Source: Vicinamibacterales bacterium (GTDB lineage Bacteria; Acidobacteriota; Vicinamibacteria; Vicinamibacterales; UBA2999). Taken from it: a stretch of DNA of 64,000 bases. Shown one piece after another: positions 6,982 through 25,099 of this stretch. The stretch spans positions 9,394 through 73,393 of the forward strand of contig DATJFF010000009.1 of NCBI GenBank assembly GCA_035495795.1. The letters run 5' to 3'. Both the position numbers and the translations under genes were made by a program. Every line of letters begins with the position of its first letter. The first letter of the stretch is position 1. Below the pieces are notes generated by a model. That model was not told the DNA's origin, made no database searches, and was given only the letters and a program-made list of their open reading frames with translations.

Positions 6982-8076
6982 TCACGCAGCCTTCGGCGGC
7001 ATCAGGTACAGCGTCATCGCGAAGATCGCGTAGACCATCAGCACCAGTACTCCGACGAACCACGCCGAGCGTCCGCTGTTCACCACCAGCGACGCGGTCA
7101 TCGTCGCGATCAGCATCATCGCGACCGCGCCGGGCCAGAACTGCAGATCCATCGGGGCCGGCCCGAGCGGGTAGCTGAGGAGCACGAGGATCGGCGCGAC
7201 GAACAGGGCAATCTGCGATGCGCTCCCGAGCGCGATGCCGACGCTCAGATCGAGCCGGTTCTTGCGCGCCCCCGAGAAGGCGGACGCCATCTCCGCCGCC
7301 GCGCCGACGATCGAGACGACGATGAAGCCGACGAACGCCTGGGTCATGCCGAAGGCGCTCGCTGCCTCCTGGACCGAGGCGACGAAGACTTCGCTGACCA
7401 GCGCCACCAGCACGGTGACGACCACCAGGATCGCGCCGGCGACACTGAGCGGCCATGGCGCCTCGTCCTCCTCACCATGAGCGGCGCTTCCGAACAGCTC
7501 TTTGTGAGTGCCAAGCGAGAAGAGCATTCCCAGTGCATAGGCGGCGATCAGCAGCACCGAGAGGCCGACGCTCAAGGTCTGGAGGAAACCGGAGCTGCGG
7601 GCTTCTTCGGCCGTCGCCACCGTCGACGGCACCAGCAGCGCGATGGTGGCCAGGAACAGCAGGCCGGACTGGAGGCGCGCGCTCGCCCGGTTGTACTCCT
7701 GCACGTGGTACTTGACCCCGCCGAGCAGGAATGACATGCCGAGCATGAACAGCGTGTTGGTGACGATTGCGCCCGCGATCGACGCCTTGACCAGCGTGTA
7801 CTCGCCAGCGCGAAGGGCGGCCAGCGCGATTACCAGCTCGGTGAGGTTGCCGAGAGTGGCGTTGAGCAGCCCGCCGGCGGCATCACCGGTCTTGGCTGCC
7901 ACCGACTCGGTCGCGTGGCTCAGCAGCGTGGCCAGCGGTACGATCGCGAGCACTGACAGCAGGAAAAGGAGCGTGTGCGACTCCGGCGCAAGCGATTCGC
8001 CCGCGAGAACCGCGGGCACGAAGATCAGCAGCCAGAGAATCGGGTTGTGCCGGATCTCGTGCCAGAGGAGCTGCAT
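6982..8076 (-). CDS. cax: Calcium/proton exchanger (CaCA family, ChaA/CAX type)
   Basis: 364 aa with about 11 TM segments. Paired alpha-repeat signatures LGNLTELVIAL and IVGAAAEMASAF...GIALGSASQIALFVAPILVL. Confidence 0.9.
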   Translation of the reverse strand: MQLLWHEIRHNPILWLLIFVPAVLAGESLAPESHTLLFLLSVLAIVPLATLLSHATESVAAKTGDAAGGLLNATLGNLTELVIALAALRAGEYTLVKASIAGAIVTNTLFMLGMSFLLGGVKYHVQEYNRASARLQSGLLFLATIALLVPSTVATAEEARSSGFLQTLSVGLSVLLIAAYALGMLFSLGTHKELFGSAAHGEEDEAPWPLSVAGAILVVVTVLVALVSEVFVASVQEAASAFGMTQAFVGFIVVSIVGAAAEMASAFSGARKNRLDLSVGIALGSASQIALFVAPILVLLSYPLGPAPMDLQFWPGAVAMMLIATMTASLVVNSGRSAWFVGVLVLMVYAIFAMTLYLMPPKAA

Positions 8077-10634: not shown

Positions 10635-11924
10635 TTACTGAGCGCGGGCGCGCATCGCCGTGATCACACGATTGGTGACCTTCGCGCCGAGCAGCGTCTT
10701 GAGTCCGGCCGGCGAGAGATCGAAGCTCACGGCCTTGGCGCTGTTGATCGCGGCGATGAGGTTCTCCTCGTCCAGGCCAGCGGCGCGCAAATCGATTACG
10801 TCCTTGTTCGTCATCGTCACCGCGGATTCTGCGACCACCGGAGGCGCCGGAGGTGGTCCGGTCGGTGTTGCCGAGCGCTGCGAAACCGGACGCGCCGGCG
10901 TCATCATCTTGGCCTGCTGATAGAGCTCCGCCAGCCGCGCGTACGAGGCGACGCTCTGCTGAATGCGCGCGCCGGCGTCGACGACGTATTTCTCGTTCGG
11001 GTTCTGCTGGACGGCCTGCAGAACGAGGCGATGGGCGAGCGAGAGGCCCGTCGACTGATCCTCCACCTCGTTCGACTCGTAGGCGATGGCCTCGTGCGCG
11101 ACCGCGAGGTTGTGCAGGCGATATGAGTCCTTCTTCCGATCGCGATGCGGCTTGAGCGCCTCCAGCGCCGACAGCCACTCCTGCCAGCGCCGATTTCGCG
11201 CGATGTCGTTCAAGTCGTCCACCTCGTCGCTGCGCGCGAGCAGCACGCGCACTGGTTCGCGGCCCGGCGTCACGCGGCCCGCGGCCCGTCGGACCGCGTT
11301 GTCGATCAGTATGTCCTCGACCGCCGCACGCGACGGCGGACCAGCCTTCACCAGATGCTCTTCCTGCACCGTATAGCGCGCGCTCTCGTCGGCGAGCGGT
11401 GCGCCGCCAGCCCGGCGCTTCACCTCGATGCGGAGCCCTGCCGCGCCGTTGATCACGACCGAGGGCTCGTTGTGTCCGTATTCGTAGACGGGCTCCGTTT
11501 TGTAACGCCCGTCCTTGTCTCGCACTTGTTTGGTGCCGATCTGCCGCTGCTCTGACACGTATTTCGTGCTGCTGCGGCGCGACTCGTTCCATTCCGTCAC
11601 GGTTGCGGTCACGACGAAATCACCTGGGCTGGGCACCACGTCCAGGCGCGAATCGTTGTCAGTCAACTGACGGCCCAACAGCTCGCGCACACGGTCCACG
11701 ACGCGGGCCGGAGCCGGGCTCGTGTTCTGCACCTGCAGCTCCACGGTGCCCGGCGGCAGCAGCAAGGCCGGCGGCACGATTGGCGACAGCGTGATTTCGG
11801 CGGTCTCGGCAAAGATGCCGCGGCGGAACTGGGCGGAGGAAGGAGCCGCAAAGGCGAGCACCACGACGAGTGAGAGGAGCGCGCGTCGTTGAGTCACGAT
11901 CGAGCTGCGGACGGAGAATATCAT
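10635..11924 (-). CDS. Hypothetical exported protein
   Basis: The ORF track extends to 12890, but that part is antisense shadow of the divergent gene. ATG 11924-11922 gives 429 aa with signal peptide LSLVVVLAFAAPSSAQ. A Pro-rich linker (PTGPPPAPP) precedes a ~55-aa C-terminal helical module (DVIDLRAAGLDEENLIAAINSAKAVSFDLSPAGLKTLLGAKV). No family recognised. Confidence 0.7.
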   Translation of the reverse strand: MIFSVRSSIVTQRRALLSLVVVLAFAAPSSAQFRRGIFAETAEITLSPIVPPALLLPPGTVELQVQNTSPAPARVVDRVRELLGRQLTDNDSRLDVVPSPGDFVVTATVTEWNESRRSSTKYVSEQRQIGTKQVRDKDGRYKTEPVYEYGHNEPSVVINGAAGLRIEVKRRAGGAPLADESARYTVQEEHLVKAGPPSRAAVEDILIDNAVRRAAGRVTPGREPVRVLLARSDEVDDLNDIARNRRWQEWLSALEALKPHRDRKKDSYRLHNLAVAHEAIAYESNEVEDQSTGLSLAHRLVLQAVQQNPNEKYVVDAGARIQQSVASYARLAELYQQAKMMTPARPVSQRSATPTGPPPAPPVVAESAVTMTNKDVIDLRAAGLDEENLIAAINSAKAVSFDLSPAGLKTLLGAKVTNRVITAMRARAQ

Positions 11925-11984
11925 CGATGTCCGCGTGAAACGGTGTTCTGAACGATACTTCCAGGTCGTGCAATTAGGCATAAG

Positions 11985-12740
11985 GTGATGCCGATGAAGG
12001 CAATCCGCATTCTGGGTATCGCCCTGCTGGGCGGCACCGTCGGTATGGCGACAACTCTCAGCGCCGGGCGGCAGCTCGCGGCCGCTGCCGGGCAACCGGA
12101 TCCCGTGGCCGCTCTCAAGCAGTCGATTGGCGAGGGCACGAAGAAGCTCGCGCAGTACGAGTGGGTGGAAACCACCGTCATCAAGCTCAAGGGCGAGGAA
12201 AAGACTCGCAAGCAGAATCGCTGCTACTACGGCGCGGACGGCAAGGTGCAGAAGGTCGCGATCGGCGACGCGCCGAAGTCCGAGCAGGGCGCCGGCGGTG
12301 GCCGGCCCGGGAAGAGAGGCGGCGCGGTCAAGGCCAAAATCATCGAGAACAAGAAGGAGGACATGCAGGAGTACATGCAACAGGCCGCGGCGCTGATCCA
12401 CTCGTACGTGCCGCCGCAGCCGGAGCAGATTCAGGCCGTCAAGGATGGTGGCCGCCTCGCGGTGAACCCGCAGCCGGGTGGCAAGGCGCGCATCGAGATG
12501 AAGCAGTACCTCAAGCCGGGCGACAGCCTGACGATCGATCTCGATACCGCCGCCAACCGCTTGCTCGGCCTCGGAGTCAACAGTTACCTGGACAAGCCGG
12601 ACGAACCCGTCACGCTCGCCGTCGAGATGAACTCGCTGCCCGACGGCGCTCTCTACGCAGCGCAGACGACGCTCGACGCCAAGGCCAAGAACATCCAGGT
12701 CGTGATCACCAACTCGGGCCACAAGCCGGTGGCGCGCTGA
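11985..12740 (+). CDS. Hypothetical exported protein
   Basis: 251 aa. The listed start is GTG 11985. ATG 11988 or ATG 11994 (MKAIRIL..., AAGG 8 nt upstream) are at least as likely. Signal peptide, then a beta-rich mature part. Lies 52 nt upstream of the ADOP permease. Confidence 0.7.
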   Translation: MMPMKAIRILGIALLGGTVGMATTLSAGRQLAAAAGQPDPVAALKQSIGEGTKKLAQYEWVETTVIKLKGEEKTRKQNRCYYGADGKVQKVAIGDAPKSEQGAGGGRPGKRGGAVKAKIIENKKEDMQEYMQQAAALIHSYVPPQPEQIQAVKDGGRLAVNPQPGGKARIEMKQYLKPGDSLTIDLDTAANRLLGLGVNSYLDKPDEPVTLAVEMNSLPDGALYAAQTTLDAKAKNIQVVITNSGHKPVAR

Positions 12741-12792
12741 ACCGCGAGTCGGGCTTTCGAACGATCCGGGACCGTCCTCCGTCCAACTCCTG

Positions 12793-15219
12793 ATGCGAAA
12801 CATCCGATACGCTCTGCGCTCCTTCAGCCGGCAGCCGGTCTTCACCCTGGTCGCGGTCCTGACGCTTGCGATCGGCATCGGCGCGAACACGGCGATCTTC
12901 AGCCTGCTGTACCAGATTCTGCTGAAGCCGTTGCCTTACGCCGATCCGGATCGCCTGGTGTTCATCTGGAACAGCTACCCGAAGACGGGCCTGGGTCAGG
13001 CGAGCGTGTCGATCCCGGATTACCTGGACCGCAGGGAGCAGGCTCCAGCGCTGGCTGACGGAACACTCTTTACGCAGCGAAGCGTGAGCCTGGTCGAGGG
13101 TGGACCACCCGAGCAGGTCAGGGCCTTGCGGGTCACCCCCTCGTTCTTCTCGACGCTGGGCCGTGACCCGCTGCTGGGCCGGAGGTTTTCCGAGCAGGAC
13201 GCCCAACCCGGCGCCGATCAGTTCGCGATCCTCACCTACGGCCTGTGGAGCGCGCGTTTTGGCTCGGACCAGGGGATTGTCGGGCGCGACGTCCGCGTCG
13301 ACGGCACGCCCTACCGCGTTGTCGGCGTGCTTCCTGCTGACTTCGAGCTGCCCTCCCGCGATGTGTCCCTGCTGGTGCCCTTTGCCTTTTCCGACCGGGA
13401 TCGGTCCGACCAGAGCCGCGGCAACGAGTTCAGCGCCATGATTGGGCGCCTCGCACCAGGCGCGACGAGGGAGCAGCTGGACGCCCAGATGAAGGCCATC
13501 GTCGGGCGCGTGGCGGCGCGCCTGCCGGAGCGGCGCGGCTTCATCGAGACGAGCGGCTTCACGGGCTACACGGTGCCGATCCGCGATCAGCTCGTCGGCG
13601 ACATGCGGACCCCGCTCCTGGTGCTGCAGATCGGCGTCGCTCTCGTCCTCCTGATCGCCTGCGTGAACGTCGCGAACCTGATGTTGATGCGGGCCACCGG
13701 GCGGCAACGCGAGGTCGCGATCCGCACCGCAGTCGGCGCCGGCCGCGGCCACCTCGTCCGCCAGATGCTGACCGAAGGCCTGGTCCTTGCCGGCCTTGGC
13801 GCGGTGGGCGGGCTGCTCATCGGCTTCGCCGGCCTGCGTGCTCTGATTGCCCTGGTGTCGGCCCAGCTTCCGGTCGCGCCCGACGTTTCGCTGAATCTGC
13901 CGGTCCTGGCGTTCACCATCGTCGTCGCCGTCGCGACCGGATTGGTCTTCGGGCTCGTGCCCGCAGGGTCGGCTATCGGCACCGAGCTGGAAACCACCTT
14001 GAGGGACGAGAGCGGGCGCACATCGGCGGCACGGCACACCAGTGTGGCGCGCGCAGCGCTGGTCGTGTCCGAGGTAGCGTTTGCGGTGATGCTGCTCGTC
14101 GGCGCCGGCCTGATGGTCAAGAGTCTGGCGCGGCTGCAGGAGGTGAACCCGGGCTTCTCGGCGGAGAACGTGTTGACCGCCCAGCTCGCGTTGCCAGGGC
14201 CGCGCTATCCCGATCCCGCGGCGCGCAAGACGTTCTGGACCCGGCTCCTCGACGGGGTTGGCCGTCTCCCGGGTGTGACCGCCGTGGGTCTCACCACCAA
14301 CGTGCCGTTCAACGGCATGGTCGGCTCGGGCTCGTACGACATCGTCGGCTACACCCCGCCCGCCGGTCAGGCTTCCCCGCACGGCCGTCAGGAAATCGTC
14401 GGCGGTGACTACTTCCGGGCGATGCAGATCCCGCTGGTTCGAGGCCGCTTCTTCAGCGATGCCGACGATACCGACAGCCCGCCGGTCGTCGTCATCGACG
14501 AGTATCTGGTCAACCGCTACTTCAAGGACAAGGACCCGATCGGCCAGCAGATTCGCCGCGGAGGGCCGACCTCAACGGCGTTCACAATCATCGGCGTGGC
14601 CGGCACTATCAACACAATCGATCTCGGCCAACCGGTAGAGAAGGAGCGCATCTACTATCCGCTGCGCCAGCAGCCGTTCGCCAGCATGGGCCTGGTCGTC
14701 AAAACCGGCCTCGATCCCACGAGGCTGGTTTCGTCGGTTCGCGGGGCCGTCCGCGCGATCGATCCCGAGCAGCCGATCGCCGACGTACGGACGATGAACC
14801 AGTGGATCAGCCAGTCGCTGCAGACGCGTCAGGCGCCGGCGGTACTGCTGGCGCTCTTCGGTGGTGTCGCGCTGGTGCTGGCCGGCATCGGCATCTACGG
14901 CGTCCTGGCGTTCGGCGTCGCGCAGCGGACGCGCGAATTCGGCATCCGCCAGGCACTTGGCGCCAACCAGGACACGATCGTCGGGATGGTCCTGGCGCAA
15001 GGGGTGAAGACGGCCCTGGCTGGCATGGCCCTCGGGCTCGTCGGCGCGTTGGCGGTGACGCGCTTTCTCGAGAGCCAGCTCTTCGGGGTGGGGACACGCG
15101 ATCCAATCGTCTTTGCGGGAGCGGCTGGAGTTCTGCTTGCGGTCGCCCTCCTGGCCTGCTACCTGCCCGCCCGAGCCACGACCCGGATCGATCCTGTGAC
15201 GGCGTTGCGGGACTCCTGA
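12793..15219 (+). CDS. ADOP-family duplicated orphan permease (MacB/FtsX-like, no adjacent ATPase)
   Basis: 808 aa. The N-terminus MRNIRYALRSFSRQPVFTLVAVLTLAIGIGANTAIFS is the typical family signature. Two copies of TM + large periplasmic domain + FtsX 3-TM bundle. No ABC ATPase gene in the neighbourhood. Confidence 0.9.
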   Translation: MRNIRYALRSFSRQPVFTLVAVLTLAIGIGANTAIFSLLYQILLKPLPYADPDRLVFIWNSYPKTGLGQASVSIPDYLDRREQAPALADGTLFTQRSVSLVEGGPPEQVRALRVTPSFFSTLGRDPLLGRRFSEQDAQPGADQFAILTYGLWSARFGSDQGIVGRDVRVDGTPYRVVGVLPADFELPSRDVSLLVPFAFSDRDRSDQSRGNEFSAMIGRLAPGATREQLDAQMKAIVGRVAARLPERRGFIETSGFTGYTVPIRDQLVGDMRTPLLVLQIGVALVLLIACVNVANLMLMRATGRQREVAIRTAVGAGRGHLVRQMLTEGLVLAGLGAVGGLLIGFAGLRALIALVSAQLPVAPDVSLNLPVLAFTIVVAVATGLVFGLVPAGSAIGTELETTLRDESGRTSAARHTSVARAALVVSEVAFAVMLLVGAGLMVKSLARLQEVNPGFSAENVLTAQLALPGPRYPDPAARKTFWTRLLDGVGRLPGVTAVGLTTNVPFNGMVGSGSYDIVGYTPPAGQASPHGRQEIVGGDYFRAMQIPLVRGRFFSDADDTDSPPVVVIDEYLVNRYFKDKDPIGQQIRRGGPTSTAFTIIGVAGTINTIDLGQPVEKERIYYPLRQQPFASMGLVVKTGLDPTRLVSSVRGAVRAIDPEQPIADVRTMNQWISQSLQTRQAPAVLLALFGGVALVLAGIGIYGVLAFGVAQRTREFGIRQALGANQDTIVGMVLAQGVKTALAGMALGLVGALAVTRFLESQLFGVGTRDPIVFAGAAGVLLAVALLACYLPARATTRIDPVTALRDS

Positions 15220-15339
15220 ACTTGCTCGCGGCCTCTCTGGCTGCTTCTCGCCGCGCCCTAGTAGGCTCTGCGGCTCAGGCGTGGCATTGCATTTTCGTGG
15301 CGCAGTCTCATAAGCTCACTCACCGGCTAAACCCACGAT

Positions 15340-16626
15340 ATGAATGCACTGTTGAAGCTGTTCATGGTCGCCGCCGTGGCTGCAGGATCGGCAACGTCCG
15401 CAGCGGCACAGCCGTCAGAACCCCCTCCCCCTGCTCCAGCCGACACCACGATCGCGTCAGGGCTCGAGCAGTCCGCCGCCAACCCTGAGCAGTCGCCGCC
15501 GACGCGGCAGGCGGCGATCGAGGAGGAGCAGGCGGCGAAAGCGGCAAAGCCGGAGCCCTACACGCCGAGCAGGGCCGAGCTGATCTTTCGCCGGGTGGAC
15601 ACCATCCTGGAAGGCGGGACGCTGCGGTGGCACCCGTTCTTCGACAGTGCCTACAACGGCGGCGGGTTCACGCTCGGCGTCGGCCACGCCAGCTACGTGA
15701 GCGCGTACAACTACATCGACGTGCGCGGCAGCTACTCGATCCTGGGCTACAAGCGCGCCGAGGCGGAGTTCGTCGCGCCGCGGCTGTTCGACCGCCGGGC
15801 GCACTTGTCTGTGCTTGGCGGCTGGCGCGAGGCGACACAGGTCGGGTTCTTCGGCATTGGCACGAACACGTCGATTGACGACCGCACGAACTACCTGTTT
15901 CAGCAGCCGTACGGCTCGGCGCTCCTCACGGTTTTGCCGACCCGCAAGGTCCTGATGCTGCGCGGGGGTGTCGAGTTCACCCAGTGGTCCCAGCAGCCCG
16001 GTGAGGGTTCGTCCCCTTCAGTCGAGGAACGGTACACGCCCGAGACGCTCCCCGGACTGGGTGCGAAAGTGAACTACCTGCACACCCAGGGCACCGTCGG
16101 ACTCGACTGGCGCACCTCTCCAGAGTACAGCCGCCGCGGCGCCTTCCTCGGGGTAACCCTGCACGACTACAAGGATCGGGACAACGCATTCGGCTTTCAG
16201 ATGGTCCAATACGACGGGATTGCGCACGTCCCCATCCTGCGCGAGGCCTGGGTACTCTCGTTCCACGGCCGGGTCCAGACCGCAGTCGAGAAGGACGGTC
16301 AGCAGATCCCGTTCTTCATGCTGCCGTCGCTCGGCGGAGGGTCCAACCTGCGCGCCTACAGCAGCTGGCGGTTCCGCGACGACAACAGTCTGCTGCTCCA
16401 GGCGGAGTGGCGCATCATGGTCAATCGCTACCTCGACCTGGCCTTTTTCTACGATGCCGGCAAAGTCACCGCACACCGGTCGGATCTCGACTTCAACGGG
16501 CTGAAGGACGATTTCGGCGTCGGCGCGCGATTCCACGGGCCGTTCTCGACGCCCCTCCGCATCGAGGTGGCCAGCAGCCGCGAAACCCGATTCAATCTGA
16601 TCTTCGCGATGTCGGCCGCGTTCTGA
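15340..16626 (+). CDS. Omp85/D15-superfamily outer-membrane beta-barrel without room for POTRA repeats
   Basis: 428 aa. Signal peptide, Ala/Pro/Glu-rich linker, then barrel-like sequence with LPSLGGGSNLRAYSSWRFRDDN (the Omp85 LGG..LRGY-type motif) and an aromatic C-terminus ...LIFAMSAAF. Confidence 0.7.
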   Translation: MNALLKLFMVAAVAAGSATSAAAQPSEPPPPAPADTTIASGLEQSAANPEQSPPTRQAAIEEEQAAKAAKPEPYTPSRAELIFRRVDTILEGGTLRWHPFFDSAYNGGGFTLGVGHASYVSAYNYIDVRGSYSILGYKRAEAEFVAPRLFDRRAHLSVLGGWREATQVGFFGIGTNTSIDDRTNYLFQQPYGSALLTVLPTRKVLMLRGGVEFTQWSQQPGEGSSPSVEERYTPETLPGLGAKVNYLHTQGTVGLDWRTSPEYSRRGAFLGVTLHDYKDRDNAFGFQMVQYDGIAHVPILREAWVLSFHGRVQTAVEKDGQQIPFFMLPSLGGGSNLRAYSSWRFRDDNSLLLQAEWRIMVNRYLDLAFFYDAGKVTAHRSDLDFNGLKDDFGVGARFHGPFSTPLRIEVASSRETRFNLIFAMSAAF

Positions 16627-16636
16627 GGTCATTGCC

Positions 16637-18328
16637 ATGTTCATGTCGCATGTCTCGTCACGCGCACGCCGGGCCGGAATCCTGGCGCTGTCGGTTGCCG
16701 CGATTGGCGTGTTCGCTCCTGCCGCCTCGACCCAGAGCGTGCGCTTTTTTGCCGACGATCCGATCGCCCGCGAACCTGAATCGCAGGACGCCTCGAAGGT
16801 GTCCGTCTACGACCACTCGCAGATGTACGAGCTGATCTACAACCTGTTCAGCAACGCCGGCCACGAGCCGAGCGGCCTGCGGGCCAAGAACATCAACACG
16901 ATCGACGAGGTGCCCGACTCGAGCTGGTTCACCAACCGGATCGGGACCAGGACGCTCACGAATGAAGAGCTCGCCCGCGGCCCCAATGTCGGCGCGCCGC
17001 CCGACCCGTCGAAATGGGTGCTGATCCGGGAAAAGATCTCGGGCGTCCACCCGGGCTTCACAGCGACGGACGCCAGGGGCGAGACGTGGTTCCTGGAATT
17101 CGATCCGGATCACTACCCGGAAGGCGCCACGGCAGCCGTCCAGATCGCGACCAAGGTGTTCTGGGCGCTTGGCTACAACCAGGTGGAATCGTTCCTGACG
17201 ACGTTCGATCCCCGCAACGTCTCGGTCGACCCGAAGGCCACCATTCGCCGCCCGAACGGCAAGAGAACGCCGTTCACCCGAGACGACATGAACGCCGTCC
17301 TCGAGACCAGCGCCCGCAACCGGGACGGGAGCTATCGCGTGATCGCCGGCCGGCTGCTGCCCGGCAAGATACTCGGCCCCTACCGGTACGACGGCACGCG
17401 CGGCGACGATCCCAACGATCTCGTGCCGCACGAGCACCGGCGCGAGTTGCGGGGCCTGCGCGTCTTCGCGGCGTGGACGAACCTCACCGACTTCAAGGCC
17501 CAGAACACCCTCGACACCCTCGTCACCGAGAACGGTAAGGCGATCGTCAAGCACTACTTGCAGGACGTCGGCTCTACTTTCGGGATGTGCAACGACTATC
17601 ACGAGTGGGACCTCAGCTGGGAATACTTCTATGAGGGTGGTCCGTCCAAGAAGCGTCTCTTCACCCTCGGGTTCGGGCTGAGCCCGTGGCAGACCGTGCA
17701 CTATGAGGAGTACCCCTCTGTCGGCAAGTTCGAAGGCAAGGTCTTCGATCCGAGAAAATGGCGGCCACAGACGCCAACCCTGGCCTACATGGAGATGCGC
17801 GACGACGACGCGTTCTGGGCGGCGAGGCGGATCGCGGCCTTCACCGATGACATGATCAGGACCGCCGTCCACACCGGGCAGTTCAGCGATCCCGCGGCCG
17901 AGAAGTACCTTGCCGATACGCTGATCCAGCGTCGGGACACGATCAAGAAGATTTACCTGACGGCGGTGAATCCGATCGTCGCCCCGCGCCTCGACGCGAA
18001 GGGACTGACGTTCGAGAACGCGGCGGTCGCTGCCGGCGTTGCCCAGGGCGCCGTGGCGTACCGGGCCTCGTGGATGGTCTTCGACAACGCGACCGGGGCG
18101 ACCCGCCCGCTGGCCGAGACGAAGAGCGAGACGACGACAATCGCGGCGCCGAACGGCCTGCCGTCGACCGGCTTCGTGGCCGTGGACGTCGCCGCGGACA
18201 GTGACACGTACCCGACGTGGAAACAGCCGGTGCGCGCCTACTTCAGCCAGAACGGTGGCAACTGGAAACTGGTCGGCCTCGATCGGCTTCCGGAGAAACC
18301 GAGCGCGGCGCGCGACAAGACGCATTGA
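16637..18328 (+). CDS. Exported protein of unknown function with a protein-kinase-like catalytic-loop pattern
   Basis: 563 aa. Starts 10 nt after the barrel gene. Signal peptide ...VFAPAASTQS. Conserved-looking NTIDEVPDSSWFTNR. Segment AAWTNLTDFKAQNTLD...YLQDVGSTFG resembles D-x-K-x-x-N plus D-x-G. See findings. Confidence 0.75.
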   Translation: MFMSHVSSRARRAGILALSVAAIGVFAPAASTQSVRFFADDPIAREPESQDASKVSVYDHSQMYELIYNLFSNAGHEPSGLRAKNINTIDEVPDSSWFTNRIGTRTLTNEELARGPNVGAPPDPSKWVLIREKISGVHPGFTATDARGETWFLEFDPDHYPEGATAAVQIATKVFWALGYNQVESFLTTFDPRNVSVDPKATIRRPNGKRTPFTRDDMNAVLETSARNRDGSYRVIAGRLLPGKILGPYRYDGTRGDDPNDLVPHEHRRELRGLRVFAAWTNLTDFKAQNTLDTLVTENGKAIVKHYLQDVGSTFGMCNDYHEWDLSWEYFYEGGPSKKRLFTLGFGLSPWQTVHYEEYPSVGKFEGKVFDPRKWRPQTPTLAYMEMRDDDAFWAARRIAAFTDDMIRTAVHTGQFSDPAAEKYLADTLIQRRDTIKKIYLTAVNPIVAPRLDAKGLTFENAAVAAGVAQGAVAYRASWMVFDNATGATRPLAETKSETTTIAAPNGLPSTGFVAVDVAADSDTYPTWKQPVRAYFSQNGGNWKLVGLDRLPEKPSAARDKTH

Positions 18329-18402
18329 CGGAGTCGCGCCGCTGGTGCCCGAACCCGTCGGCGATGAGTAGCTGACGACACATCGATGTTTCCAGTCTAA
18401 CG

Positions 18403-18422
18403 AGCCCTTCGAGGAAGGGCTA
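18403..18422 (+). terminator. Possible stem-loop terminator after the 563-aa gene
   Basis: AGCCCTTC-GAGG-GAAGGGCT, an 8-bp perfect stem 75 nt after the stop. There is no following T tract, so this is weak. Confidence 0.3.
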
Positions 18423-18692
18423 TGCTCGTCGCGACGCTCTCCAGGCGACGCGCCGGCGCGACGGGCCTCCTGCGTCCTCTGTTGGCATGGGGGATGCCGG
18501 TGACGTCACACGGTGGTCGGTCTTCGGCCCTGGAGGGCGGCATCTTCCGCTACTTCGCGATACGGCAACCGGCGATCACTGAAAGAGTTGCGAGCAGCAC
18601 CGCGGCGTGGCGCTGCTCGAAGGTGCGGGAGGCGACCCCGGCCGGCCGGAGCGTCCCCCGGTTATTCGTGCGCAGTCCGAGGGGCAGCCATC

Positions 18693-21431
18693 ATGAAGAC
18701 GTCAAATCCGGCCATTTTCGACGATGTCAACGAACAGCGCCGCCTGAACGAAGCCCGCGAGAACGGTGTTCCCTGGAAGAAGTGGGGACCGTACCTGAGC
18801 GAGCGGCAGTGGGGAACCGTCCGCGAGGACTACAGCCGCGACGGCAACGCGTGGAACTACTTCTCGCACGACCAGTCCCGCTCGCGGACCTACCGCTGGG
18901 GCGAAGACGGGCTGGCCGGCGTCTCCGATGATGGCCAACGGCTGTGCTTCGGGCTCGCGCTCTGGAACGGCGAGGATCCGATTCTCAAAGAACGGCTGTT
19001 CGGCCTCACCAACAGCGAAGGCAATCACGGCGAAGACGTCAAGGAGTACTACTTTTACGTCGATTCGACGCCGACGCACTCGTACATGAAGTACCTGTAC
19101 AAGTATCCGCAGCGCGCCTTCCCATACGTCGATCTCATCGAGACGAACCGCCGGCGCACGCGCGAGGACTTCGAGTACGAGCTGATCGACACTGGTGTCT
19201 TCGCCGACAACCGCTACTTCGACGTCTTCGTCGAGTACGCCAAGGGCGGCCCCGACGACCTGCTGGTGCAGATCACGATCCACAACCGGGGACCCGAACC
19301 GGCGACGCTGCACCTCCTTCCGACGCTCTGGTTCCGGAACACCTGGTCCTGGGGCGACGATGTCGCCCGCCCCATCCTGCGCGAGGCCGACGGCGCCGTC
19401 GCCGTCGAGCACCAGGAGCTGGGGCCCTACACCCTGGCGTGCGACGGTTCGCCGGATCTGTTGTTCACGGAAAACGAATCGAATAGCGAGCGGCTGTGGG
19501 GAGAGGCCAACCGCACCCCTTACGTCAAGGACGCGTTCCACCGCTACGTGATCGACGGCGATGTCGGCGCCGTCAACCCGGAGCGGACCGGGACCAAGGC
19601 GGCTGCGCACTACATCCTCAGCGTGCCCGCGGAGGGAGCGCAGGTAGTACGGCTGCGGCTGGCGTCCGCCAAAGAGGAGACGCCGTTCGGCGCCTCGTTC
19701 GCGGAGATCTTCGGCAAGCGGCTCGCCGATGCCGACGAGTTCTACGACCGGATCACGCCGTCTTCTCTCAATGCCGATCAGCGCCGCGTCCACCGCCAGG
19801 CGCTGGCCGGCATGCTGTGGACGAAGCAGTACTACTACTACGACGTGGATCGCTGGCTGAAGGAGCGCGGCACCCACCCGCTCGCCGGCACGGGCCACCA
19901 GGCGCCACGGAACGCCGAGTGGTTCCACATGCTCAACGGGGACATCATCTCGATGCCCGACAAGTGGGAGTATCCGTGGTACGCGGCCTGGGACCTGGCG
20001 TTCCACACCCTGGCGTTGTCGCTCGTCGACTTCGACTTCGCCAAGGAGCAGCTGCTCCTGATGCTCCGCTCCCTCTACAGCCACCCCAACGGTCAGATTC
20101 CCGCGTACGAGTGGAACTTCAGCGACGTCAACCCGCCGGTGCACGCCTGGGCCACGCTGTTCCTTTTCACGATGGAGAAGGACCTCGGGCGCGAGGACAT
20201 CGATTTCCTCGAACGCTCGTTCCAGGGGCTGATGCTCAACTTCAACTGGTGGGTGAACCGCAAGGATCCCAATGGCCGCAACGTGTTCGCCGGCGGCTTC
20301 CTCGGCCTCGACAACATCGGCATCTTCGATCGCAGCGCGCGGCTGCCGACCGGCGGCTCGCTGGAGCAGGCGGACGGCACGGCGTGGATGGCGTTCTACT
20401 GCCAGAACATGCTCGAGATGGCGCTGATCCTCGCCGACAGGGACTCGGCCTACGAGGAATTAGCGTTCAAGTTCCTCGAGAACTTCATCTGGATCGCCTA
20501 CGCGATGGATCGGATCGGCGAGCACGGCGACGAGATGTGGGACGACGAAGACGGGTTCTATTACGACGTGCTGCGGCTCCCGAACGGCGACGCATTCAGG
20601 CTGAAAGTGCGCTCGATGGTCGGGCTGCTGCCGCTCTGCGCGAGCACGGTGATCGAGGGCAGCACGGCAGCGAGGCATCCGCGTCTGATGGAGTTGATTG
20701 CGTTGTTCCGGAAGCGGCACCCGCAGGTCGTGGCCAAGGTGGCGCCGACCACTGACGGGTTCGTCGGGGTCAACAACCGCCGCCTGCTGTCGCCGCTCTC
20801 GAAGGAGAAGCTGACCCGGATCCTTGGCTATCTCCTCGACGAGAACGAGTTCCTGAGCCCGTTCGGAATCCGATCGCTGTCACGCGTCCATCGCGATCAC
20901 CCGTTCGTCTTCCGCACCGGCGGCCAGGAGTACAGCGTCCATTACCTGCCGGCCGAGTCGAACACCGGGATGTTCGGCGGCAACTCGAACTGGCGCGGTC
21001 CAATCTGGATGCCGGTCAACGGGCTGATCGTCCGCGGCCTGCTGCACCTCTACTCGTTCTACGGAGACGATTTCACCGTCGAATGCCCGACCGGATCGGG
21101 GCACCGCCTGACGCTGTTCCAGGTGGCGGAGGAGATCACGCGGCGGCTGAGCTCGATGTTCCTGCGCGACGCGAGCGGCAAGCGGCCGGTATACGGCGGG
21201 ACGTCCGTGTTCCAGGACGACCCGCACTGGCGCGACTACATCCTCTTCTACGAGTATTTCCACGGCGACAACGGCGCCGGGCTCGGCGCGAGCCACCAGA
21301 CCGGCTGGACCGGGATCATCGCGCGGCTGATGGACGTCTTCGCGCGGATGAAGCCGGCCGACATCGTCGCCACGCCCATGCGCGAAGTCGCCGAGCGGCT
21401 GGTTCGCGAGCAGGTCGGGGGAAAGCGATAA
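18693..21431 (+). CDS. GH63-like glycoside hydrolase (MGH1-like glucosidase family)
   Basis: The ORF track starts at 18513. ATG 18693 (MKTSNPAIFDD...) is the likely start, giving 912 aa. The N-terminal block PWKKWGPYLSERQWGTVREDYS and the (alpha/alpha)6-type C-terminal half with ...YFHGDNGAGLGASHQTGWT are as I recall for this family. Confidence 0.8.
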   Translation: MKTSNPAIFDDVNEQRRLNEARENGVPWKKWGPYLSERQWGTVREDYSRDGNAWNYFSHDQSRSRTYRWGEDGLAGVSDDGQRLCFGLALWNGEDPILKERLFGLTNSEGNHGEDVKEYYFYVDSTPTHSYMKYLYKYPQRAFPYVDLIETNRRRTREDFEYELIDTGVFADNRYFDVFVEYAKGGPDDLLVQITIHNRGPEPATLHLLPTLWFRNTWSWGDDVARPILREADGAVAVEHQELGPYTLACDGSPDLLFTENESNSERLWGEANRTPYVKDAFHRYVIDGDVGAVNPERTGTKAAAHYILSVPAEGAQVVRLRLASAKEETPFGASFAEIFGKRLADADEFYDRITPSSLNADQRRVHRQALAGMLWTKQYYYYDVDRWLKERGTHPLAGTGHQAPRNAEWFHMLNGDIISMPDKWEYPWYAAWDLAFHTLALSLVDFDFAKEQLLLMLRSLYSHPNGQIPAYEWNFSDVNPPVHAWATLFLFTMEKDLGREDIDFLERSFQGLMLNFNWWVNRKDPNGRNVFAGGFLGLDNIGIFDRSARLPTGGSLEQADGTAWMAFYCQNMLEMALILADRDSAYEELAFKFLENFIWIAYAMDRIGEHGDEMWDDEDGFYYDVLRLPNGDAFRLKVRSMVGLLPLCASTVIEGSTAARHPRLMELIALFRKRHPQVVAKVAPTTDGFVGVNNRRLLSPLSKEKLTRILGYLLDENEFLSPFGIRSLSRVHRDHPFVFRTGGQEYSVHYLPAESNTGMFGGNSNWRGPIWMPVNGLIVRGLLHLYSFYGDDFTVECPTGSGHRLTLFQVAEEITRRLSSMFLRDASGKRPVYGGTSVFQDDPHWRDYILFYEYFHGDNGAGLGASHQTGWTGIIARLMDVFARMKPADIVATPMREVAERLVREQVGGKR

Positions 21432-21572
21432 GACGGGGGTTCAAAGCACGGGGGTTCAAAGCACGACGGGTTCAAAGCACGACGGGTTCAAAGCACGACG
21501 GGTTCAAAGGTACGTACGTTCAAGGCACGAAGTTCGAAGGCGCGAGCGTTCAAGGCCACGAAGGTTCTGCGT
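21432..21572 (+). repeat. Tandem array of about 9 units of a 15-16 bp repeat (GGGTTCAAAGCACGAC), sense to the GH63-like gene
   Basis: GTTCAA cores at 21439, 21454, 21470, 21486, 21502, 21518, 21532 (GTTCGA), 21548 and 21564 (GTTCTG). The array starts 1 nt after the TAA stop, and units decay with distance. Confidence 0.9.
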
Positions 21573-21642
21573 CGGGGGTGAGCTCAAAAGAGCGCTCTTC
21601 AGAATAGGGCAGCGCGAAGTGTCTCCGCGGCCGTCGCGCAGC

Positions 21643-21770
21643 TCTCAACGAACCCTCGCGTTGAACCTCCGTGCTTTTGAACTCCCGTGATTTGAACCTC
21701 CGTGATTTGAACCTCCGTGATTTGAACCCCTGTGATTTGAACCACCGTGATTTGAACCTACGTGAAAAGA
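21643..21770 (-). repeat. Tandem array of about 7 units (minus-strand GGTTCAAATCACGGA), sense to the FAD-oxidase gene and reverse complement of the 21432-21572 array
   Basis: The plus strand reads CCGTGATTTGAACCT repeated with a 15-bp period. The last unit overlaps the stop and last codons of gene 21758-23335. Confidence 0.9.
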
Positions 21771-23335
21771 ACGCCTGGCGCGAGTTTGCCCGTGGGGTCG
21801 AGCGCGCGCTTGACGGCTCGCATCTCCTCGATGCCTTGCTCGCCGTAGAGCTCTCTTAGCAGCTGCTGCTTGAGCCGGCTGCGGCCGACGCCGTGCTCGG
21901 CGAGCGGCGCGCCGCCCATCGCGATCACGCCGCGGGCGATGTCGTGGATCGCCTGCCGGCCGGCCTCGACGTCCGCGAGCGACCGCGGGATCAGGTTGGG
22001 GTGCAGGTTGCCGTCGGAGAAGTGGCCCCAGATGGCGCAGTCGAGACCCCGCCGGGTGAATGCCTCGCGGTAGAGCCGCAGCGAATCGGCGAGCCGATCG
22101 AACGGCACCACCGGATCGGCAGCCGTCTTCTGGATCTCGGGGTGGACGCGTGCTTTCGCGGCGCCGACCAGCGCGTTGACGCTCGCCGGCACCGCCTCGC
22201 GCAGTCCGAACAGCCGCTCGGCGCCGCGGTCATCGTCGGGGAGTGCCACGATCGGATCGTCGGCGACGCCGGCGCGCGCGAGCCGCGACGCTAACGTCTC
22301 GAGCGTGGTGTCTTCGCCGCCGGGCACCTCGATCTGGATCAGGAGCAGTACCGAACCCGCGCCCGGACGCGGAGTCTGGGCCCGCGCGAACGCCTCGTCG
22401 GGAACGGCAGCCAGCGAGCGCGCATCCATGTACTCGACGGCAGACACGTCGAGCGCTCCTGTTCCCCGGCTACCGGTGCCGACACGGGTTTGGGCCGCTG
22501 CCGCAAGATGGCGTCGTCCGATCGACTCCGAGCACAGCGCGGCTGTGAGCGCGATTGCCTGTTCATCCCCAGCACAGCGGACCAACGCCACCAGCCGCCG
22601 CGGCCGCGGCACGACGCGCAGTCGCGCGGCGGTGATCACGCCCAGCGTTCCCTCCGAGCCGATGAACAGGTCGATGAGATCCATCCCCGGCGCCGCGAAG
22701 TAGCCGGCGGAGAGCTTGGCGACCTCCGGCATGCGAACGGCCGGGACCCGAACCCGCACCGCCGCTCCGTCGCTCGCCTCGATCGTGAATCCGCGTTCTG
22801 AATCCGCGAAAATCTTGCCGCGTTCGAGATCCAGCACATCGCCGCTGGCGAGCACGACCGCGATCGCCTCCACCCAGTTGCGCGTCGAGCCGTACTTGAA
22901 CGTGGCTGCGCCGGCGGCGTTGGTCGCAATCGTGCCGCCGACAAAGGCGCCGTCGTAGGTCGGAACGGGCGGGTAGTACAGGCCCGACGCCGTCAGCGCC
23001 TGTTGCAGCACCGCCAGCGGAACACCGGCGCCAACGTGCACGCAGCCATCCGCGGGTGTGCCGATCGCCGAGAGCGCGCGGGTGCTGACGAGCACCTCGC
23101 CGCGTGGCGTGGCGCCCCCGGTCAGCGAGGACTGCGCGCCGATCGCAAGCACCCGACCGGATGCGGCAACGATGGCGGCGACTTCGGCTTCGTCGTGAGG
23201 GAACACGATGCCCGGCGATCTCCCGCCCGGCACATGTGCAGCGTCGCTCAGGAATGAGGCGAGGATGGCGGGATCACGTTCAATCGGAGGCACCGCCGCC
23301 GGCCGCGGCCGTCTCGCACGCAGGCGCGAAGTCAC
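21758..23335 (-). CDS. FAD-linked oxidase (GlcD / D-lactate dehydrogenase-like)
   Basis: 525 aa. N-terminal FAD-binding PCMH-type region (...VFPHDEAEVAAIVAASGRVLAIGAQSSLTGGATP...). C-terminal oxidase domain ending ...HGVGRSRLKQQLLRELYGEQGIEEMRAVKRALDPTGKLAPGVLF. Confidence 0.85.
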   Translation of the reverse strand: MTSRLRARRPRPAAVPPIERDPAILASFLSDAAHVPGGRSPGIVFPHDEAEVAAIVAASGRVLAIGAQSSLTGGATPRGEVLVSTRALSAIGTPADGCVHVGAGVPLAVLQQALTASGLYYPPVPTYDGAFVGGTIATNAAGAATFKYGSTRNWVEAIAVVLASGDVLDLERGKIFADSERGFTIEASDGAAVRVRVPAVRMPEVAKLSAGYFAAPGMDLIDLFIGSEGTLGVITAARLRVVPRPRRLVALVRCAGDEQAIALTAALCSESIGRRHLAAAAQTRVGTGSRGTGALDVSAVEYMDARSLAAVPDEAFARAQTPRPGAGSVLLLIQIEVPGGEDTTLETLASRLARAGVADDPIVALPDDDRGAERLFGLREAVPASVNALVGAAKARVHPEIQKTAADPVVPFDRLADSLRLYREAFTRRGLDCAIWGHFSDGNLHPNLIPRSLADVEAGRQAIHDIARGVIAMGGAPLAEHGVGRSRLKQQLLRELYGEQGIEEMRAVKRALDPTGKLAPGVLFT

Positions 23336-23357
23336 CAGCCGATTCTGTCGCAGTTCG

Positions 23358-23420
23358 GACGAACGCCCGTACGTTGAAGCCTCGGGCCTTGAAGCCGTGG
23401 GCTTTGAACCTCGATGAGAA
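23358..23420 (-). repeat. Degenerate third array of the GGTTCAA(A/G)G family, sense to the histidine kinase gene
   Basis: The minus strand reads ...GAGGTTCAAAGCCCACGGCTTCAAGGCCCGAGGCTTCAACGTACGGGCGTTCGTCCGAAC..., beginning about 8 nt after the kinase stop (23429). Confidence 0.7.
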
Positions 23421-23428
23421 CGGTCGCG

Positions 23429-25099
23429 TTAGCGGGTGGCCCCGCGCACTGCGAGCGCCGCTTCGAGCGCCTCCGGGCTGACGGGCTTCACGAGATGCTG
23501 GTCGAATCCGGCCGCGCGCGACGCGTCGATATCGGCCTGGCTGCCGTAACCGGACACGGCGAGGATGAGCGCCCCGGACGTCTCCGGCCGCGAGCGAAGG
23601 ATCGCGACCAGCTCGCGCCCGCTCATGTCGGGCAATCCGATGTCCAGCAGCATCGCATCGGGGTGGAACTGGGCGGCCGCGGTCAGCGCCGACCCCGCGT
23701 CGTAGCTGACCTGGGCCTCGTGCCCGTGAAGCTCCAGCAACATGCGCAGCGTTTCCGCGGCATCGACGTTGTCTTCGACGATCAGGACGCGGCGGCTCGG
23801 GCTCGCCTCGAGACGGGGCCGATCCGGAGCCGCGGCCGGCTCGTGCTCCGATGAGCACGGCAAGCGCATCTCGAACTCGGATCCCAGACCGGGGCCCGAG
23901 CTGCGCGCCAGTACCTGCCCGCCGTGGAGTTCGATCAGCCGCTTGACCAGGGCGAGGCCGATCCCGAGGCCGCCCTGGGTGCGGTGCAGCGAGTGATCCC
24001 CCTGGGTGAAGGGGTCGAACACGCGCGGCAGCAGCTCGGGGTCGATTCCCTGGCCGCTGTCACGCACCACGAGCGTCGCATCGCTGCCGTGGCGCTCCAG
24101 CTCGATGCCGATCGTGCCGCCCGGCTCCATGTACTTCGAGGCGTTGTTGAGCAGGTTCGCCACCGCCTGGGCGAGACGCTCGAGATCCGCATCGACGAAG
24201 AGCGGCTCGGGCCACTGCCGCCGTTCGACGCGATGATGGCGGGAGGCGATCAGCGGCGCGCTCATCTCGAGTGCGCGATCCACGGCCTCTTCCAGCCGCA
24301 TCGGCCGTCGTTGCAGCACGATCTTCCCGCGGGATATCCGCGAGAGATCGAGCAGGTCATCGACCAGCCGGCGCAGGTGCTCGACCTGCCGTTCGATCAC
24401 CGACTGGGCCCAGATGCGCGTCGCGGGTTCGAGCTCGTCCTGGCGCATCACCTCGAGGGCGTTGCGAATCGGGGCGAGCGGGTTGCGGAGCTCGTGGGCG
24501 AGGAGCGCGAGAAACTCATCCTTGGCGCGATCGGCGTCGTCGAGCTCCTGCATCCGGTGGCGCAGCTCGAGCTCGAGCACACCGCATTCGTCGATCTTGC
24601 TCCTCAACCGGTCGTTGGTCTGGGCCAGCTCACGGTTGCGCTCGCGGACGCGCAACTCGAGCTGTTCGCGCAATTTCGACAGGCGCTGCTCGGCGTTGCG
24701 GAGCTCCCGCAAGTCCTCGATCGCGAGCAGTACTAACACCTCGTCATTGTTCCGGACGAGGTCGGGCATCAAGCGGGCTTCGATCGCACTCTCGCGTGGG
24801 CGAAGCGTTACCAGAAATGACGTGCGTTCGTAGCGCAAACACCGCAGCCACTGTCCAAAGGCCTGCCCGTCCTGCGTAGACAGGAGGGCAATGAGCGGCA
24901 GTCGCGGTACGGCGACGATCTCTTCTCCGAGCAGCTCGACGGCGGCGTTGTTGGCGTTGAGGATTGCGCCATTCAACGACAGGATGAGGTAAGGGAACGG
25001 AGCCCGATTCAGCAGCTCGAACGCGAACTCGAGCAGCTCCGGCTTACGGTGGCCCGTTGCAACCTCGGGCCTGCGGTTAGGGAAGGCCGCGTCGAACAT
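23429..25099 (-). CDS. Hybrid sensor histidine kinase / response regulator
   Basis: 556 aa. PAS-like N-terminus and coiled coil. H-box FLALLAHELRNPLAPI. N box NLLNNASKY. G boxes DSGQGI and GGLGIGL. C-terminal receiver with LLDIGLPDMSG. Lies 24 nt downstream of the CheB-CheR gene. Confidence 0.9.
   Translation of the reverse strand: MFDAAFPNRRPEVATGHRKPELLEFAFELLNRAPFPYLILSLNGAILNANNAAVELLGEEIVAVPRLPLIALLSTQDGQAFGQWLRCLRYERTSFLVTLRPRESAIEARLMPDLVRNNDEVLVLLAIEDLRELRNAEQRLSKLREQLELRVRERNRELAQTNDRLRSKIDECGVLELELRHRMQELDDADRAKDEFLALLAHELRNPLAPIRNALEVMRQDELEPATRIWAQSVIERQVEHLRRLVDDLLDLSRISRGKIVLQRRPMRLEEAVDRALEMSAPLIASRHHRVERRQWPEPLFVDADLERLAQAVANLLNNASKYMEPGGTIGIELERHGSDATLVVRDSGQGIDPELLPRVFDPFTQGDHSLHRTQGGLGIGLALVKRLIELHGGQVLARSSGPGLGSEFEMRLPCSSEHEPAAAPDRPRLEASPSRRVLIVEDNVDAAETLRMLLELHGHEAQVSYDAGSALTAAAQFHPDAMLLDIGLPDMSGRELVAILRSRPETSGALILAVSGYGSQADIDASRAAGFDQHLVKPVSPEALEAALAVRGATR

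Follow-up and report, generated by a model that had tools for sequence, protein, structure and literature searches.

In a bacterium of the order Vicinamibacterales, two convergent genes are separated by two arrays of a short tandem repeat that face each other, each of them anchored on the stop codon of the gene that it follows. The arrays lie in a 64,000-nucleotide stretch of DNA, referred to here as the window, and they raise the question of what such opposed repeats are and whether they serve the ends of the two genes or have accumulated where they are tolerated. Vicinamibacterales-type Acidobacteria are abundant in soil and, to our knowledge, their gene-end signals are essentially unstudied.

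Opposed arrays between two convergent stop codons

The gap between the GH63-like gene and the FAD-oxidase gene measures 326 nt from stop to stop and is occupied by two opposed arrays of a 15-16-base repeat. On the plus strand, the gap is preceded by a gene for a GH63/MGH1-like glycoside hydrolase (18513-21431; open reading frame list, Pfam PF22422 and PF03200), whose start is uncertain, the codon model favouring 18693, and whose TAA stop is located at 21429-21431. The left array (21432-21567, plus strand, sense to this gene) starts one base after the TAA and comprises about 8.7 copies of the unit GGGTTCAAAGCACGAC; TRF reported a period of 16, 8.7 copies and 81% matches over 21433-21567. Its first 4.6 copies (21437-21509) are 96% identical, with decay in the inner units: four exact cores GTTCAAAGCACG, starting at 21439, 21454, 21470 and 21486, are followed by about four decayed units, GTTCAAAGGTACG, GTTCAAGGCACG, GTTCGAAGGCGCG and GTTCAAGGCCACG. 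GC and AT skew are both positive across 21400-21599, the region of this array.

On the minus strand, the gap follows a gene for a D-lactate-dehydrogenase-like FAD-linked oxidase (21758-23335; Pfam PF01565 and PF02913), the closest homologues of which carry the names Vicinamibacterales or Acidobacteria. The right array (21661-21765, minus strand, sense to the oxidase gene) exhibits about 6.9 units, inverted with respect to the left array (TRF: period 15, 6.9 copies, 86% matches; minus-strand reading GGAGGTTCAAATCACG). Read on the minus strand, the units GGTTCAAATCACG are found at 21746-21758, 21731-21743, 21716-21728, 21701-21713 and 21686-21698, and the inner units are decayed. The outermost unit contains the oxidase TAG (21758-21760) and overlaps the last codons of the gene, GTT CTT TTC ACG, which are themselves unit-like. 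The oxidase ends in ...APGVLFT, and among 45 homologues the conserved end APGVLF is followed by 0-10 variable residues, which indicates that the array begins exactly where the constraint on the protein stops. The initial annotation had placed two stop-anchored arrays here, each sense to the preceding gene; sequence inspection and TRF agreed with its coordinates and unit sequences, the TAA ending one base before the left array and the TAG lying inside the outermost right unit.

The two arrays enclose a central spacer of 93 nt (21568-21660), a unique sequence with small local stems that would correspond to the loop region of a hairpin. Attention had been drawn to AAGAGCGCTCTT (21588-21599) within the spacer. 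It is a perfect 12-bp palindrome, as described, but no special significance attaches to it: the window contains 40 such palindromes in total, and this one is unremarkable on its own. A further array had been reported after the stop codon of the hybrid histidine kinase gene, the next gene beyond the oxidase gene (minus strand, stop at 23429-23431). This third, degenerate array of the same family (GGTTCAAAGCCCACGGCTTCAAGGCCCGAGGCTTCAACG, 23374-23413, minus strand) does exist between the kinase stop and the oxidase start, in sense orientation to both genes, but it is weak (period 15, 2.7 copies, 76%). Allowing up to two mismatches, the 13-mer GGTTCAAAKCACG occurs 12 times in the window compared with 2.0 occurrences expected, and 0 of 100 shuffles reached 12. 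Five of these matches fall in each main array, one in the third array and one, at chance level, inside the GH63-like gene.

With regard to RNA structure, the sequence from stop to stop is predicted to fold into one hairpin of about -166 to -169 kcal/mol (z -8 to -10) with approximately 84-91 arm-to-arm pairs. For positions 21420-21780 (361 nt), the predicted fold has -168.6 kcal/mol (z -8.1) on the plus strand and -157.2 kcal/mol (z -7.0) on the minus strand, which is consistent with the long imperfect stem proposed initially. As the core variants differ between the arms (AAAGCACG versus AAATCACG), resulting in one G.A or C.U mismatch per unit, and as the linkers differ too, perfect pairing is not kept. 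The two exclusions made at the outset were also upheld. The units are contiguous, with linkers of only 3-4 nt and no spacers, and hence do not constitute a CRISPR; no hairpin-plus-T-tract or other terminator-like pattern was detected in 21000-23600, as expected if the structure is not a canonical terminator. T-runs downstream of either arm are never longer than 3, and a U-tract after the stem is absent. No sigma-70 promoter-like pattern was found in the region, and no Rfam family matched at gathering score in the whole window on either strand. A promoter role was discarded, given that the TTGAAC of the antisense unit lies 7 or about 22 nt from -10-like boxes at array edges and not 17 nt. Rho loading was likewise rejected: the sense strand has more G than C and is not rut-like, and the antisense strand is rut-like but base-paired in array pairs.

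The same architecture is built from other units. A second stop-to-stop hairpin in the window (48569-48719) consists of units CACGAAGG[A/C], with a predicted energy of -92.3 kcal/mol (z -12.7), and separates a CO-dehydrogenase-flavoprotein-like gene (plus strand) from a PQQ-dehydrogenase gene (minus strand), both stops lying at the stem base. A hairpin of the unit GTCGGGAGGGGACAC (-144.5 kcal/mol, z -11.0) is predicted downstream of an oxidase orthologue with 69% identity in another genome (L231). Repeats or hairpins are present in each of the window's four convergent gaps. In each of these repeat families, the strand rich in purines is sense to the gene next to it. Convergent gaps that lack the 15-16-base family are likewise rich in purines directly downstream of each stop, with a fraction of 0.559 versus about 0.495 in co-oriented gaps.

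A dispersed family anchored on stop codons

The repeat belongs to a previously undescribed family that is scattered through Vicinamibacterales-like soil Acidobacteria. One metagenome scan, using two adjacent exact cores as the pattern, yielded 106 contigs, almost all with 63-71% GC, and 124 arrays at 83 unique sites. The low-GC matches were set aside as unrelated coding repeats, (KFKSR)n, or two-unit chance matches. In a genome collection, the pattern GTTCAAA at 14-16-nt spacing proved too loose and was filled with (GTTCAAA)n heptamer arrays from many phyla; among the matches listed, L015, L055 and L065 are true relatives, and they show the same core across different species-level lineages. 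A viral collection of 2.9 million contigs contained no match to the family, and a search of a collection of papers revealed no exact 13-mer, no description of the motif or family and no paper on Vicinamibacterales repeats.

The family unit comprises the 12-nt core GTTCAAAGCACG and a purine-rich linker of 3 nt (n=169) or 4 nt (n=153), arranged head to tail, with about 40 linker variants across sites; the conservation of the core is unreadable from the metagenome set, in which the search pattern itself fixed the core. Stop codons are absent from all three frames of the sense unit, as are ATG, GTG and TTG from the unit as a whole. A tendency of arrays to be perfect at the stop and decayed at the far end, as seen in the window, was not general, mismatch profiles being alike on both flanks.

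Genes on the metagenome contigs were called by a codon-usage model trained on their long open reading frames, with reliable stops and approximate starts. The initial annotation had suggested looking for a genome-wide association with gene ends and strand, and such an association is apparent on these contigs: among the 67 non-coding arrays with a known 5' neighbour, 45 lie next to a same-strand stop, 39 of them at a distance of no more than 28 nt, whereas the other 22 face a start. Unit and stop codon are in phase, in one of two forms. In the first, CACGG-TAG-GTTCAAAG, the unit extends into the last codons of the gene (7 of 8 flush sites); in the second, the stop and 0-3 nt are followed by CACGGNG-GTTCAAAG. 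Of 37 array-adjacent stops, 25 are TAG and 8 are TGA; elsewhere, TAG accounts for 167 of 454 stops (odds ratio 3.6, p=3.5e-4). Eighteen of the 25 TAG stops read GTAG; GC3-rich codon usage likewise favours a G immediately upstream of a stop. The right arm in the window reads CGTAG; the left arm uses TAA.

Both neighbouring genes were called at 41 sites, of which 22 are co-oriented, 12 convergent and 7 divergent, against a background of 301, 74 and 81, respectively. The co-oriented sites comprise 15 sense arrays, 6 antisense arrays and 1 pair. Seven of the 12 convergent sites carry an inverted pair, versus 1 of the 29 others (p=2.5e-4), and all pairs have their 5' ends outward (10:0, p=0.002). 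Since the mirror arrangement would pair equally well, the polarity of the arrays relative to the genes matters. The paired sites are all predicted to fold from stop to stop (z -6.4 to -14.6), and the unit counts of the two arms correlate across pairs (Spearman 0.68, p=0.02).

Most sites of the family are solo arrays, which as RNA are predicted to be less structured than shuffled controls (z +2.2, +5.0, +4.0 and +1.7). As solo arrays are both unstructured and in the majority, a hairpin cannot be the general role of the family. Given that they fold no better than shuffles, and mostly worse, and that pairing requires a second, opposed array, the unit is not a REP-type palindrome. At two loci (L205 and L220), a solo array is located between the stop codon and a canonical hairpin+T7 terminator, which places it inside the 3'UTR. 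Eight intragenic arrays were also identified, all in frame.

The contigs of the family are also rich in arrays of 7-9 nt, such as AAGGCAA, CCCAAGA, AGGAATC, GTCGGGA and CACGAAGGA. An association of heptamer arrays with start codons was not retained, CAT being present within 30 nt in 21 of 68 arrays and in 16 of 66 controls. At L225, inverted arrays flank a PF05635 gene (23S rRNA IVS/Avd-like four-helix bundle); a link to this gene was likewise abandoned, as the arrangement was found at one locus type only (L225 and L170).

Copy-number variation and low substitution divergence of the array gap

The initial annotation had suggested a comparison of copy number in related genomes. Two JGI contigs (L120 and L121) carry the same convergent gene pair, with an oxidase that is 98% identical. 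In both, each arm has one 15-nt unit fewer than in the window and there is one substitution beside an indel; the gap is otherwise identical, including the unique central spacer. Unit counts also vary at orthologous sites elsewhere in the family (14/4/5/5, 12/8/3/12, 2/2/4 and 5/3), and orthologous sites have kept their arrays where the flanks have diverged by 15-30%.

Over the 12.6 kb shared by the window and L120, the divergence of the flanking genes is 1.9% across all sites and 3.6-4.1% at third-codon positions, that of the other intergenic regions is 1.7-9.6%, and that of the array gap is 0.3%. At the flanking third-codon rate of 3.8%, 11.7 substitutions would be expected in the 311 aligned bases of the gap, versus the 1 observed in this one strain pair (Poisson P=1e-4). 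The nearest substitutions outside the gap are 55 nt away on its left side and 19 nt away on its right side. Of segments of the same size, 10.6% are equally conserved, all of them coding.

In a relative with 88% identity (L122), the same gene pair has only 22 nt between its stops. The sequence TAG-CCCCCCGCGTGTCTGTTGAACC-TA corresponds to one unit abutting the oxidase TAG, and this single unit implies that the hairpin is dispensable. In the gap between the kinase and oxidase genes, the third array is kept in L120, and a (TGCCTTT)n array occupies its place in L122. Judging from these alignments, the arrays are young on the scale of 12% protein divergence, and they are length-variable between close strains while otherwise unusually conserved between them.

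A putative shared 3' end and competing explanations

We consider the chances to be even that the hairpin acts as a bidirectional RNA 3'-end structure shared by both mRNAs and built of a REP/BIME-like or MIRU-like repeat. Each array begins at or runs through the stop of the preceding gene, with its purine-rich strand as the mRNA sense strand, and the transcript of either convergent gene would fold the stop-to-stop gap into one long imperfect hairpin. Its effect would be to curb read-through towards the opposing gene, to hold up 3' exonucleases and/or to provide a site for RNase III, which is the mode of action of REP/BIME elements and bidirectional terminators, the nearest functional models. 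The arrays gain and lose whole units by slippage, in the manner of minisatellites, and arm lengths tend to co-vary. We infer that the arrays are transcribed, that the hairpin forms in vivo and that it affects termination or stability. The structure, polarity and position of the arrays, together with their low divergence, point to selection on a transcribed hairpin. The absence of a U-tract, the mismatch in each unit, the majority of solo arrays, the lack of a hairpin in L122 and the single strain pair behind the divergence estimate are the reasons why we do not put this shared 3'-end structure any higher.

Several known systems resemble the one described here. REPs are reported to act as 3'UTR terminator-stabilisers and, between convergent genes, to be associated with higher expression of both (bioRxiv 10.64898/2026.03.23.713779); GTAG-tagged REPs have been reported to supply the TAG stops of flanking ORFs and to occur inside ORFs as well (PMC3733652). 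The present family resembles REPs and BIMEs in its many dispersed intergenic 3'UTR copies, single or as inverted dimers, in co-oriented and convergent gaps, in termini that may often supply the flanking TAG stop, in some copies inside ORFs, in strain-variable positions and in the proposed role as terminator and mRNA stabiliser. It differs in that the REP unit is a RAYT-linked palindrome of 20-40 bp, whereas the unit here is a non-palindromic 15-16-mer arranged head to tail; moreover, solo arrays are unstructured, a hairpin is predicted only from two opposed arrays, and no transposase is linked to the family. MIRUs are tandem, mobile and codon-anchored (PMC12548453). As in MIRUs, tandem head-to-tail units are found here at many intergenic loci with VNTR-type copy number, are gene-oriented and anchored on the codons bounding the flanking genes, and are apparently mobile. 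In contrast, the MIRU unit measures about 40-100 bp and carries a translation-coupling ORF that overlaps the start or stop codons of its neighbours, whereas the unit here has 15-16 nt, no frame and no start codons, and opposed arrays are predicted to form hairpins.

With bidirectional terminators, the locus shares one predicted hairpin common to two convergent transcripts; whichever direction is read, the 5' arm is purine/A-rich and the 3' arm pyrimidine/U-containing. However, the arms here are about 100-135 nt compared with 5-15 bp, an internal loop is predicted at every linker, and the only U-run is U3 once per unit, with no terminal U-tract. Cyanobacterial STRR heptanucleotide arrays, reportedly described by Mazel et al. 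in 1990, are said to comprise many short tandem families that fill non-coding DNA. A likeness to them is seen in the 7-9-nt arrays in non-coding DNA on the same contigs as the family, but the present unit has 15-16 nt, a fixed core with a free linker, and occurs in a different phylum; we know of no report that STRRs are defined by anchoring on stops or by pairing in convergent gaps. Correia and other MITEs, as well as foldback elements of Drosophila, possess inverted ends that flank a short intergenic spacer and give RNA hairpins, and in the Drosophila elements these ends are made of tandem subrepeats. Unlike them, the present family exhibits solo arrays and variable unit numbers, and neither a target-site duplication nor a transposase is evident.

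The most serious alternative, which we regard as possible although less probable, is that the arrays are selfish or neutral repeat DNA without a host function, REP- or minisatellite-like, that seeds sites and then expands by slippage. Seeding could be due to a Y1 (RAYT/TIRYT-type) transposase acting on a GTAG-tagged end or to template switching; position and orientation would reflect where arrays are tolerated, and the convergent hairpin would be a by-product. The prevalence of unstructured solo arrays fits this explanation, as do the arrays in divergent promoter regions (7 sites) and in frame within genes (8 sites), and the abundance of other 7-9-nt arrays on the same contigs. It would also account for the fast copy-number change and the turnover seen in L122, which lacks the arrays and has a different heptamer array at the neighbouring gap, and it is in line with the GTAG at 18 of 25 array-adjacent TAG stops, as GTAG-tagged REPs are known to provide flanking ORFs with TAG stops and to occur within ORFs (PMC3733652). 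Neutrality does not readily explain why the gap and the unique 93-nt spacer within it have diverged far less than the synonymous sites nearby and the other intergenic regions, nor why arrays persist at orthologous sites with 15-30% flank divergence. Convergent pairs are far commoner than independent acquisition predicts, and their polarity is constant. Furthermore, the unit is non-palindromic, so that solo arrays lack the hairpin substrate of a Y1 transposase, and no transposase was linked to the family in the 64-kb window or on the metagenome fragments.

A role for sequence-specific recognition was considered in two versions. In the more ambitious one, which we judge unlikely, the 12-nt core would be the site of a dedicated factor, such as an RNA- or DNA-binding protein or a Y1- or reverse-transcriptase-type enzyme, that places and maintains arrays at stops in the sense of the gene. 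The arrays would then constitute U-tract-independent termination or insulation modules tuned by copy number, of which the stop-to-stop hairpin would be the convergent-gene form. In the simpler version, which is also rather doubtful, the array would present several copies of a core, at 15-16-nt intervals, to a sequence-specific DNA- or RNA-binding protein, for instance a roadblock or termination factor, a nucleoid protein or a 3'UTR RNA-binding protein. The sharply defined core next to a free, purine-rich linker of 3 or 4 nt with about 40 variants, the importance of orientation relative to the gene and the recurrence of the same core in the species-level lineages L015, L055 and L065 would suit such a protein, to which solo arrays, predicted to be single-stranded as RNA, would be accessible. 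Yet the conservation of the core is largely an ascertainment artefact, as two exact cores were required by the pattern, and no candidate protein was found. In addition, the same architecture arises from other units (CACGAAGG and GTCGGGAGGGGACAC), an argument that what counts is structure and composition more than a particular site.

It is very unlikely that the paired arrays are a MITE or foldback transposon of a TA-targeting (IS630/mariner-like) transposase with inverted ends made of subrepeats. Such an element, on inserting at the TA of a stop codon, would restore TAG at either end, which could explain the enrichment of TAG at array-adjacent stops, the perfect ends TAGCACGGCGGTTCAAAGCACG ... 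CGTGCTTTGAACCGCCGTGCTA between two convergent stops at one locus (L142), and the 5' junctions, which nearly always contain TA (TAG, TATAG or GTAC) even where a stop is not needed. However, most sites are solo and without an inverted end, the two arms of a pair are unlike in their number of units and in their linkers, and TGA stops, which do not contain TA, also occur (8 of 37). The continuation of the unit upstream of the TAG into the coding sequence (CACGG-TAG) at 7 of 8 flush junctions is not predicted by TA insertion, and no clean empty site was found, L122 retaining one unit. Finally, a translated read-through tail, in which a partly suppressed stop, mostly TAG, would turn the array into a repetitive C-terminal extension, is compatible with the open frames of the sense unit, the TAG enrichment, the exact 15-nt period of the right arm in the window and the 15-nt array of L065 that encodes an (EGSKH)n tail, but is effectively ruled out by the intergenic periods, which are divided almost equally between 15 and 16 nt (141:149), compared with 15 nt in 25 of 26 intragenic intervals, so that non-coding arrays keep no reading frame.

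If the shared 3'-end structure is real, high-GC bacteria without hairpin-plus-U terminators would be able to build bidirectional gene-end insulators from expandable tandem repeats, and the strength of these insulators would be adjustable by the number of units. As the arrays supply or overlap stop codons and sit in frame in genes, they will confuse gene callers and assemblers. Their copy-number variation makes them potential VNTR-type strain markers for uncultured soil lineages.

Repeats at gene starts, within reading frames and around a PF05635 gene

Arrays of the family, the tandem repeat of 15-16 nt that fills the gap between the GH63-like and FAD-oxidase genes, were also found in positions other than gene ends. 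At least 11 of the 22 sites at which the 5' edge of an array faces a gene start carry a -10-like TAnnnT hexamer on the opposite strand, exactly at the array edge and facing the divergent gene (contigs L174, L185, L134, L170, L015, L189, L227, L197 and L225). Examples of these hexamers include CGTGCTATACT, TACACT and TACAAT, and they are followed on their 3' side either by ATG or GTG after 5-10 nt or by a Shine-Dalgarno sequence plus ATG. Judged from the sequence, they could represent leaderless promoters or a preference of the arrays for TA-rich junctions.

Other arrays lie within reading frames. In contig L055 (3889-3930), three family units are found in frame and antisense within the ORF of a protein of approximately 641 residues, and the antisense in-frame units are identical in six contigs (L055, L137, L159, L182, L193 and L226). 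Two features are found in L065 (2915-3095 and 460-606): an rpsO/pnp intergenic hairpin formed by inverted (GTTCAAR)n heptamer arrays, and a 15-nt family array that is translated in frame, resulting in an (EGSKH)n C-terminal tail. In E. coli, the rpsO-pnp position holds a stem that is cleaved by RNase III.

At one locus type only (L225 2239-3045 and L170 3-548), inverted family arrays of 12 and 11 units border a gene matching PF05635, the 23S rRNA intervening-sequence protein or Avd-like four-helix bundle (E=1.6e-17). This arrangement recalls that of rRNA intervening sequences, in which a PF05635-type gene likewise lies between stem-forming inverted repeats.

Stop-to-stop hairpins and clusters built from other units

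A second hairpin running from stop codon to stop codon was identified in the window at 48569-48719; it spans the gap that separates a CO-dehydrogenase-flavoprotein-like gene from a PQQ-dehydrogenase gene. Its arms consist of tandem CACGAAGG(A/C) units, and its predicted fold reaches -92.3 kcal/mol (z -12.7). As the stem base has an A-rich 5' side and a U-rich 3' side, the modelled structure resembles a classic bidirectional terminator. An oxidase orthologue of 69% identity in another genome is followed on its 3' side by a stop-to-stop hairpin composed of GTCGGGAGGGGACAC-type units (L231 3037-3253; predicted fold -144.5 kcal/mol, z -11), and the perfect outer inverted repeats of this hairpin, 15 nt in length (CGTACGCGCCACGGA), are flush with both stops.

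The window further comprises three longer GC-rich repeats, with units of 88 nt (2.9 copies, 38421-38679), 37 nt (4.2 copies, 42581-42738) and 41 nt (2.3 copies, 44121-44213); CGCTTCGCG and GCCGCTCGG.AGGCGCC are common to the 88-mer and the 41-mer. The 88-mer cluster is located between convergent genes. The 88-mer contains three small stem-loops, their loops reading TTC, as well as a GTAGGC tag, features that make the repeat resemble a GTAG-tagged REP cluster.

Short-unit arrays and exchange of families at one site

Arrays of the heptamer (GTTCAAA)n were found in at least 119 contigs of the genome collection scan (L001-L119) from many phyla, including, among the matches listed, Bacteroidota, Acidobacteriota, Verrucomicrobiota, Chloroflexota and Planctomycetota. 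Among those matches, 68 arrays had at least four units and sufficient flanking sequence, and 18 of them showed an inverted partner at most 150 nt away. No significant association with start codons was found among the matches listed.

Several gaps carry arrays of another heptamer, AAGGCAA (reverse complement TTGCCTT); in the window they are located at 50775-50830 and 57472-57501, the latter followed on its 3' side by a plain 10-bp hairpin (57509-57533) between two convergent stops. Five copies of the nonamer CGAGAACCC (62034-62078) begin 13 nt past a stop, and the next ORF contains 3.8 copies of the nonamer CCTCGAGAA (63522-63555). Further array families adjoin family arrays in L139 (482-602), L143 (1450-1493) and L217 (about 7450-7600), namely GCCTGGA/GCCTGAA heptamers (approximately 17 units), octamers of GACCTCAA and repeats of the CAATCGC type.

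Divergence between the window and the 98%-identical strain L120 forms a mosaic along window positions 11730-24357. Within the first two genes on the left (11985-15219), 13% of third-codon positions differ, compared with 1-5% to their right, a pattern suggestive of recombination between lineages. With regard to the gap between the hybrid histidine-kinase and FAD-oxidase genes, AAGGCAA heptamers fill it in L122, an 88% relative (847-899), whereas the window exhibits a degenerate GGTTCAAAG-type array. Unlike repeat families thus take each other's place at one site.
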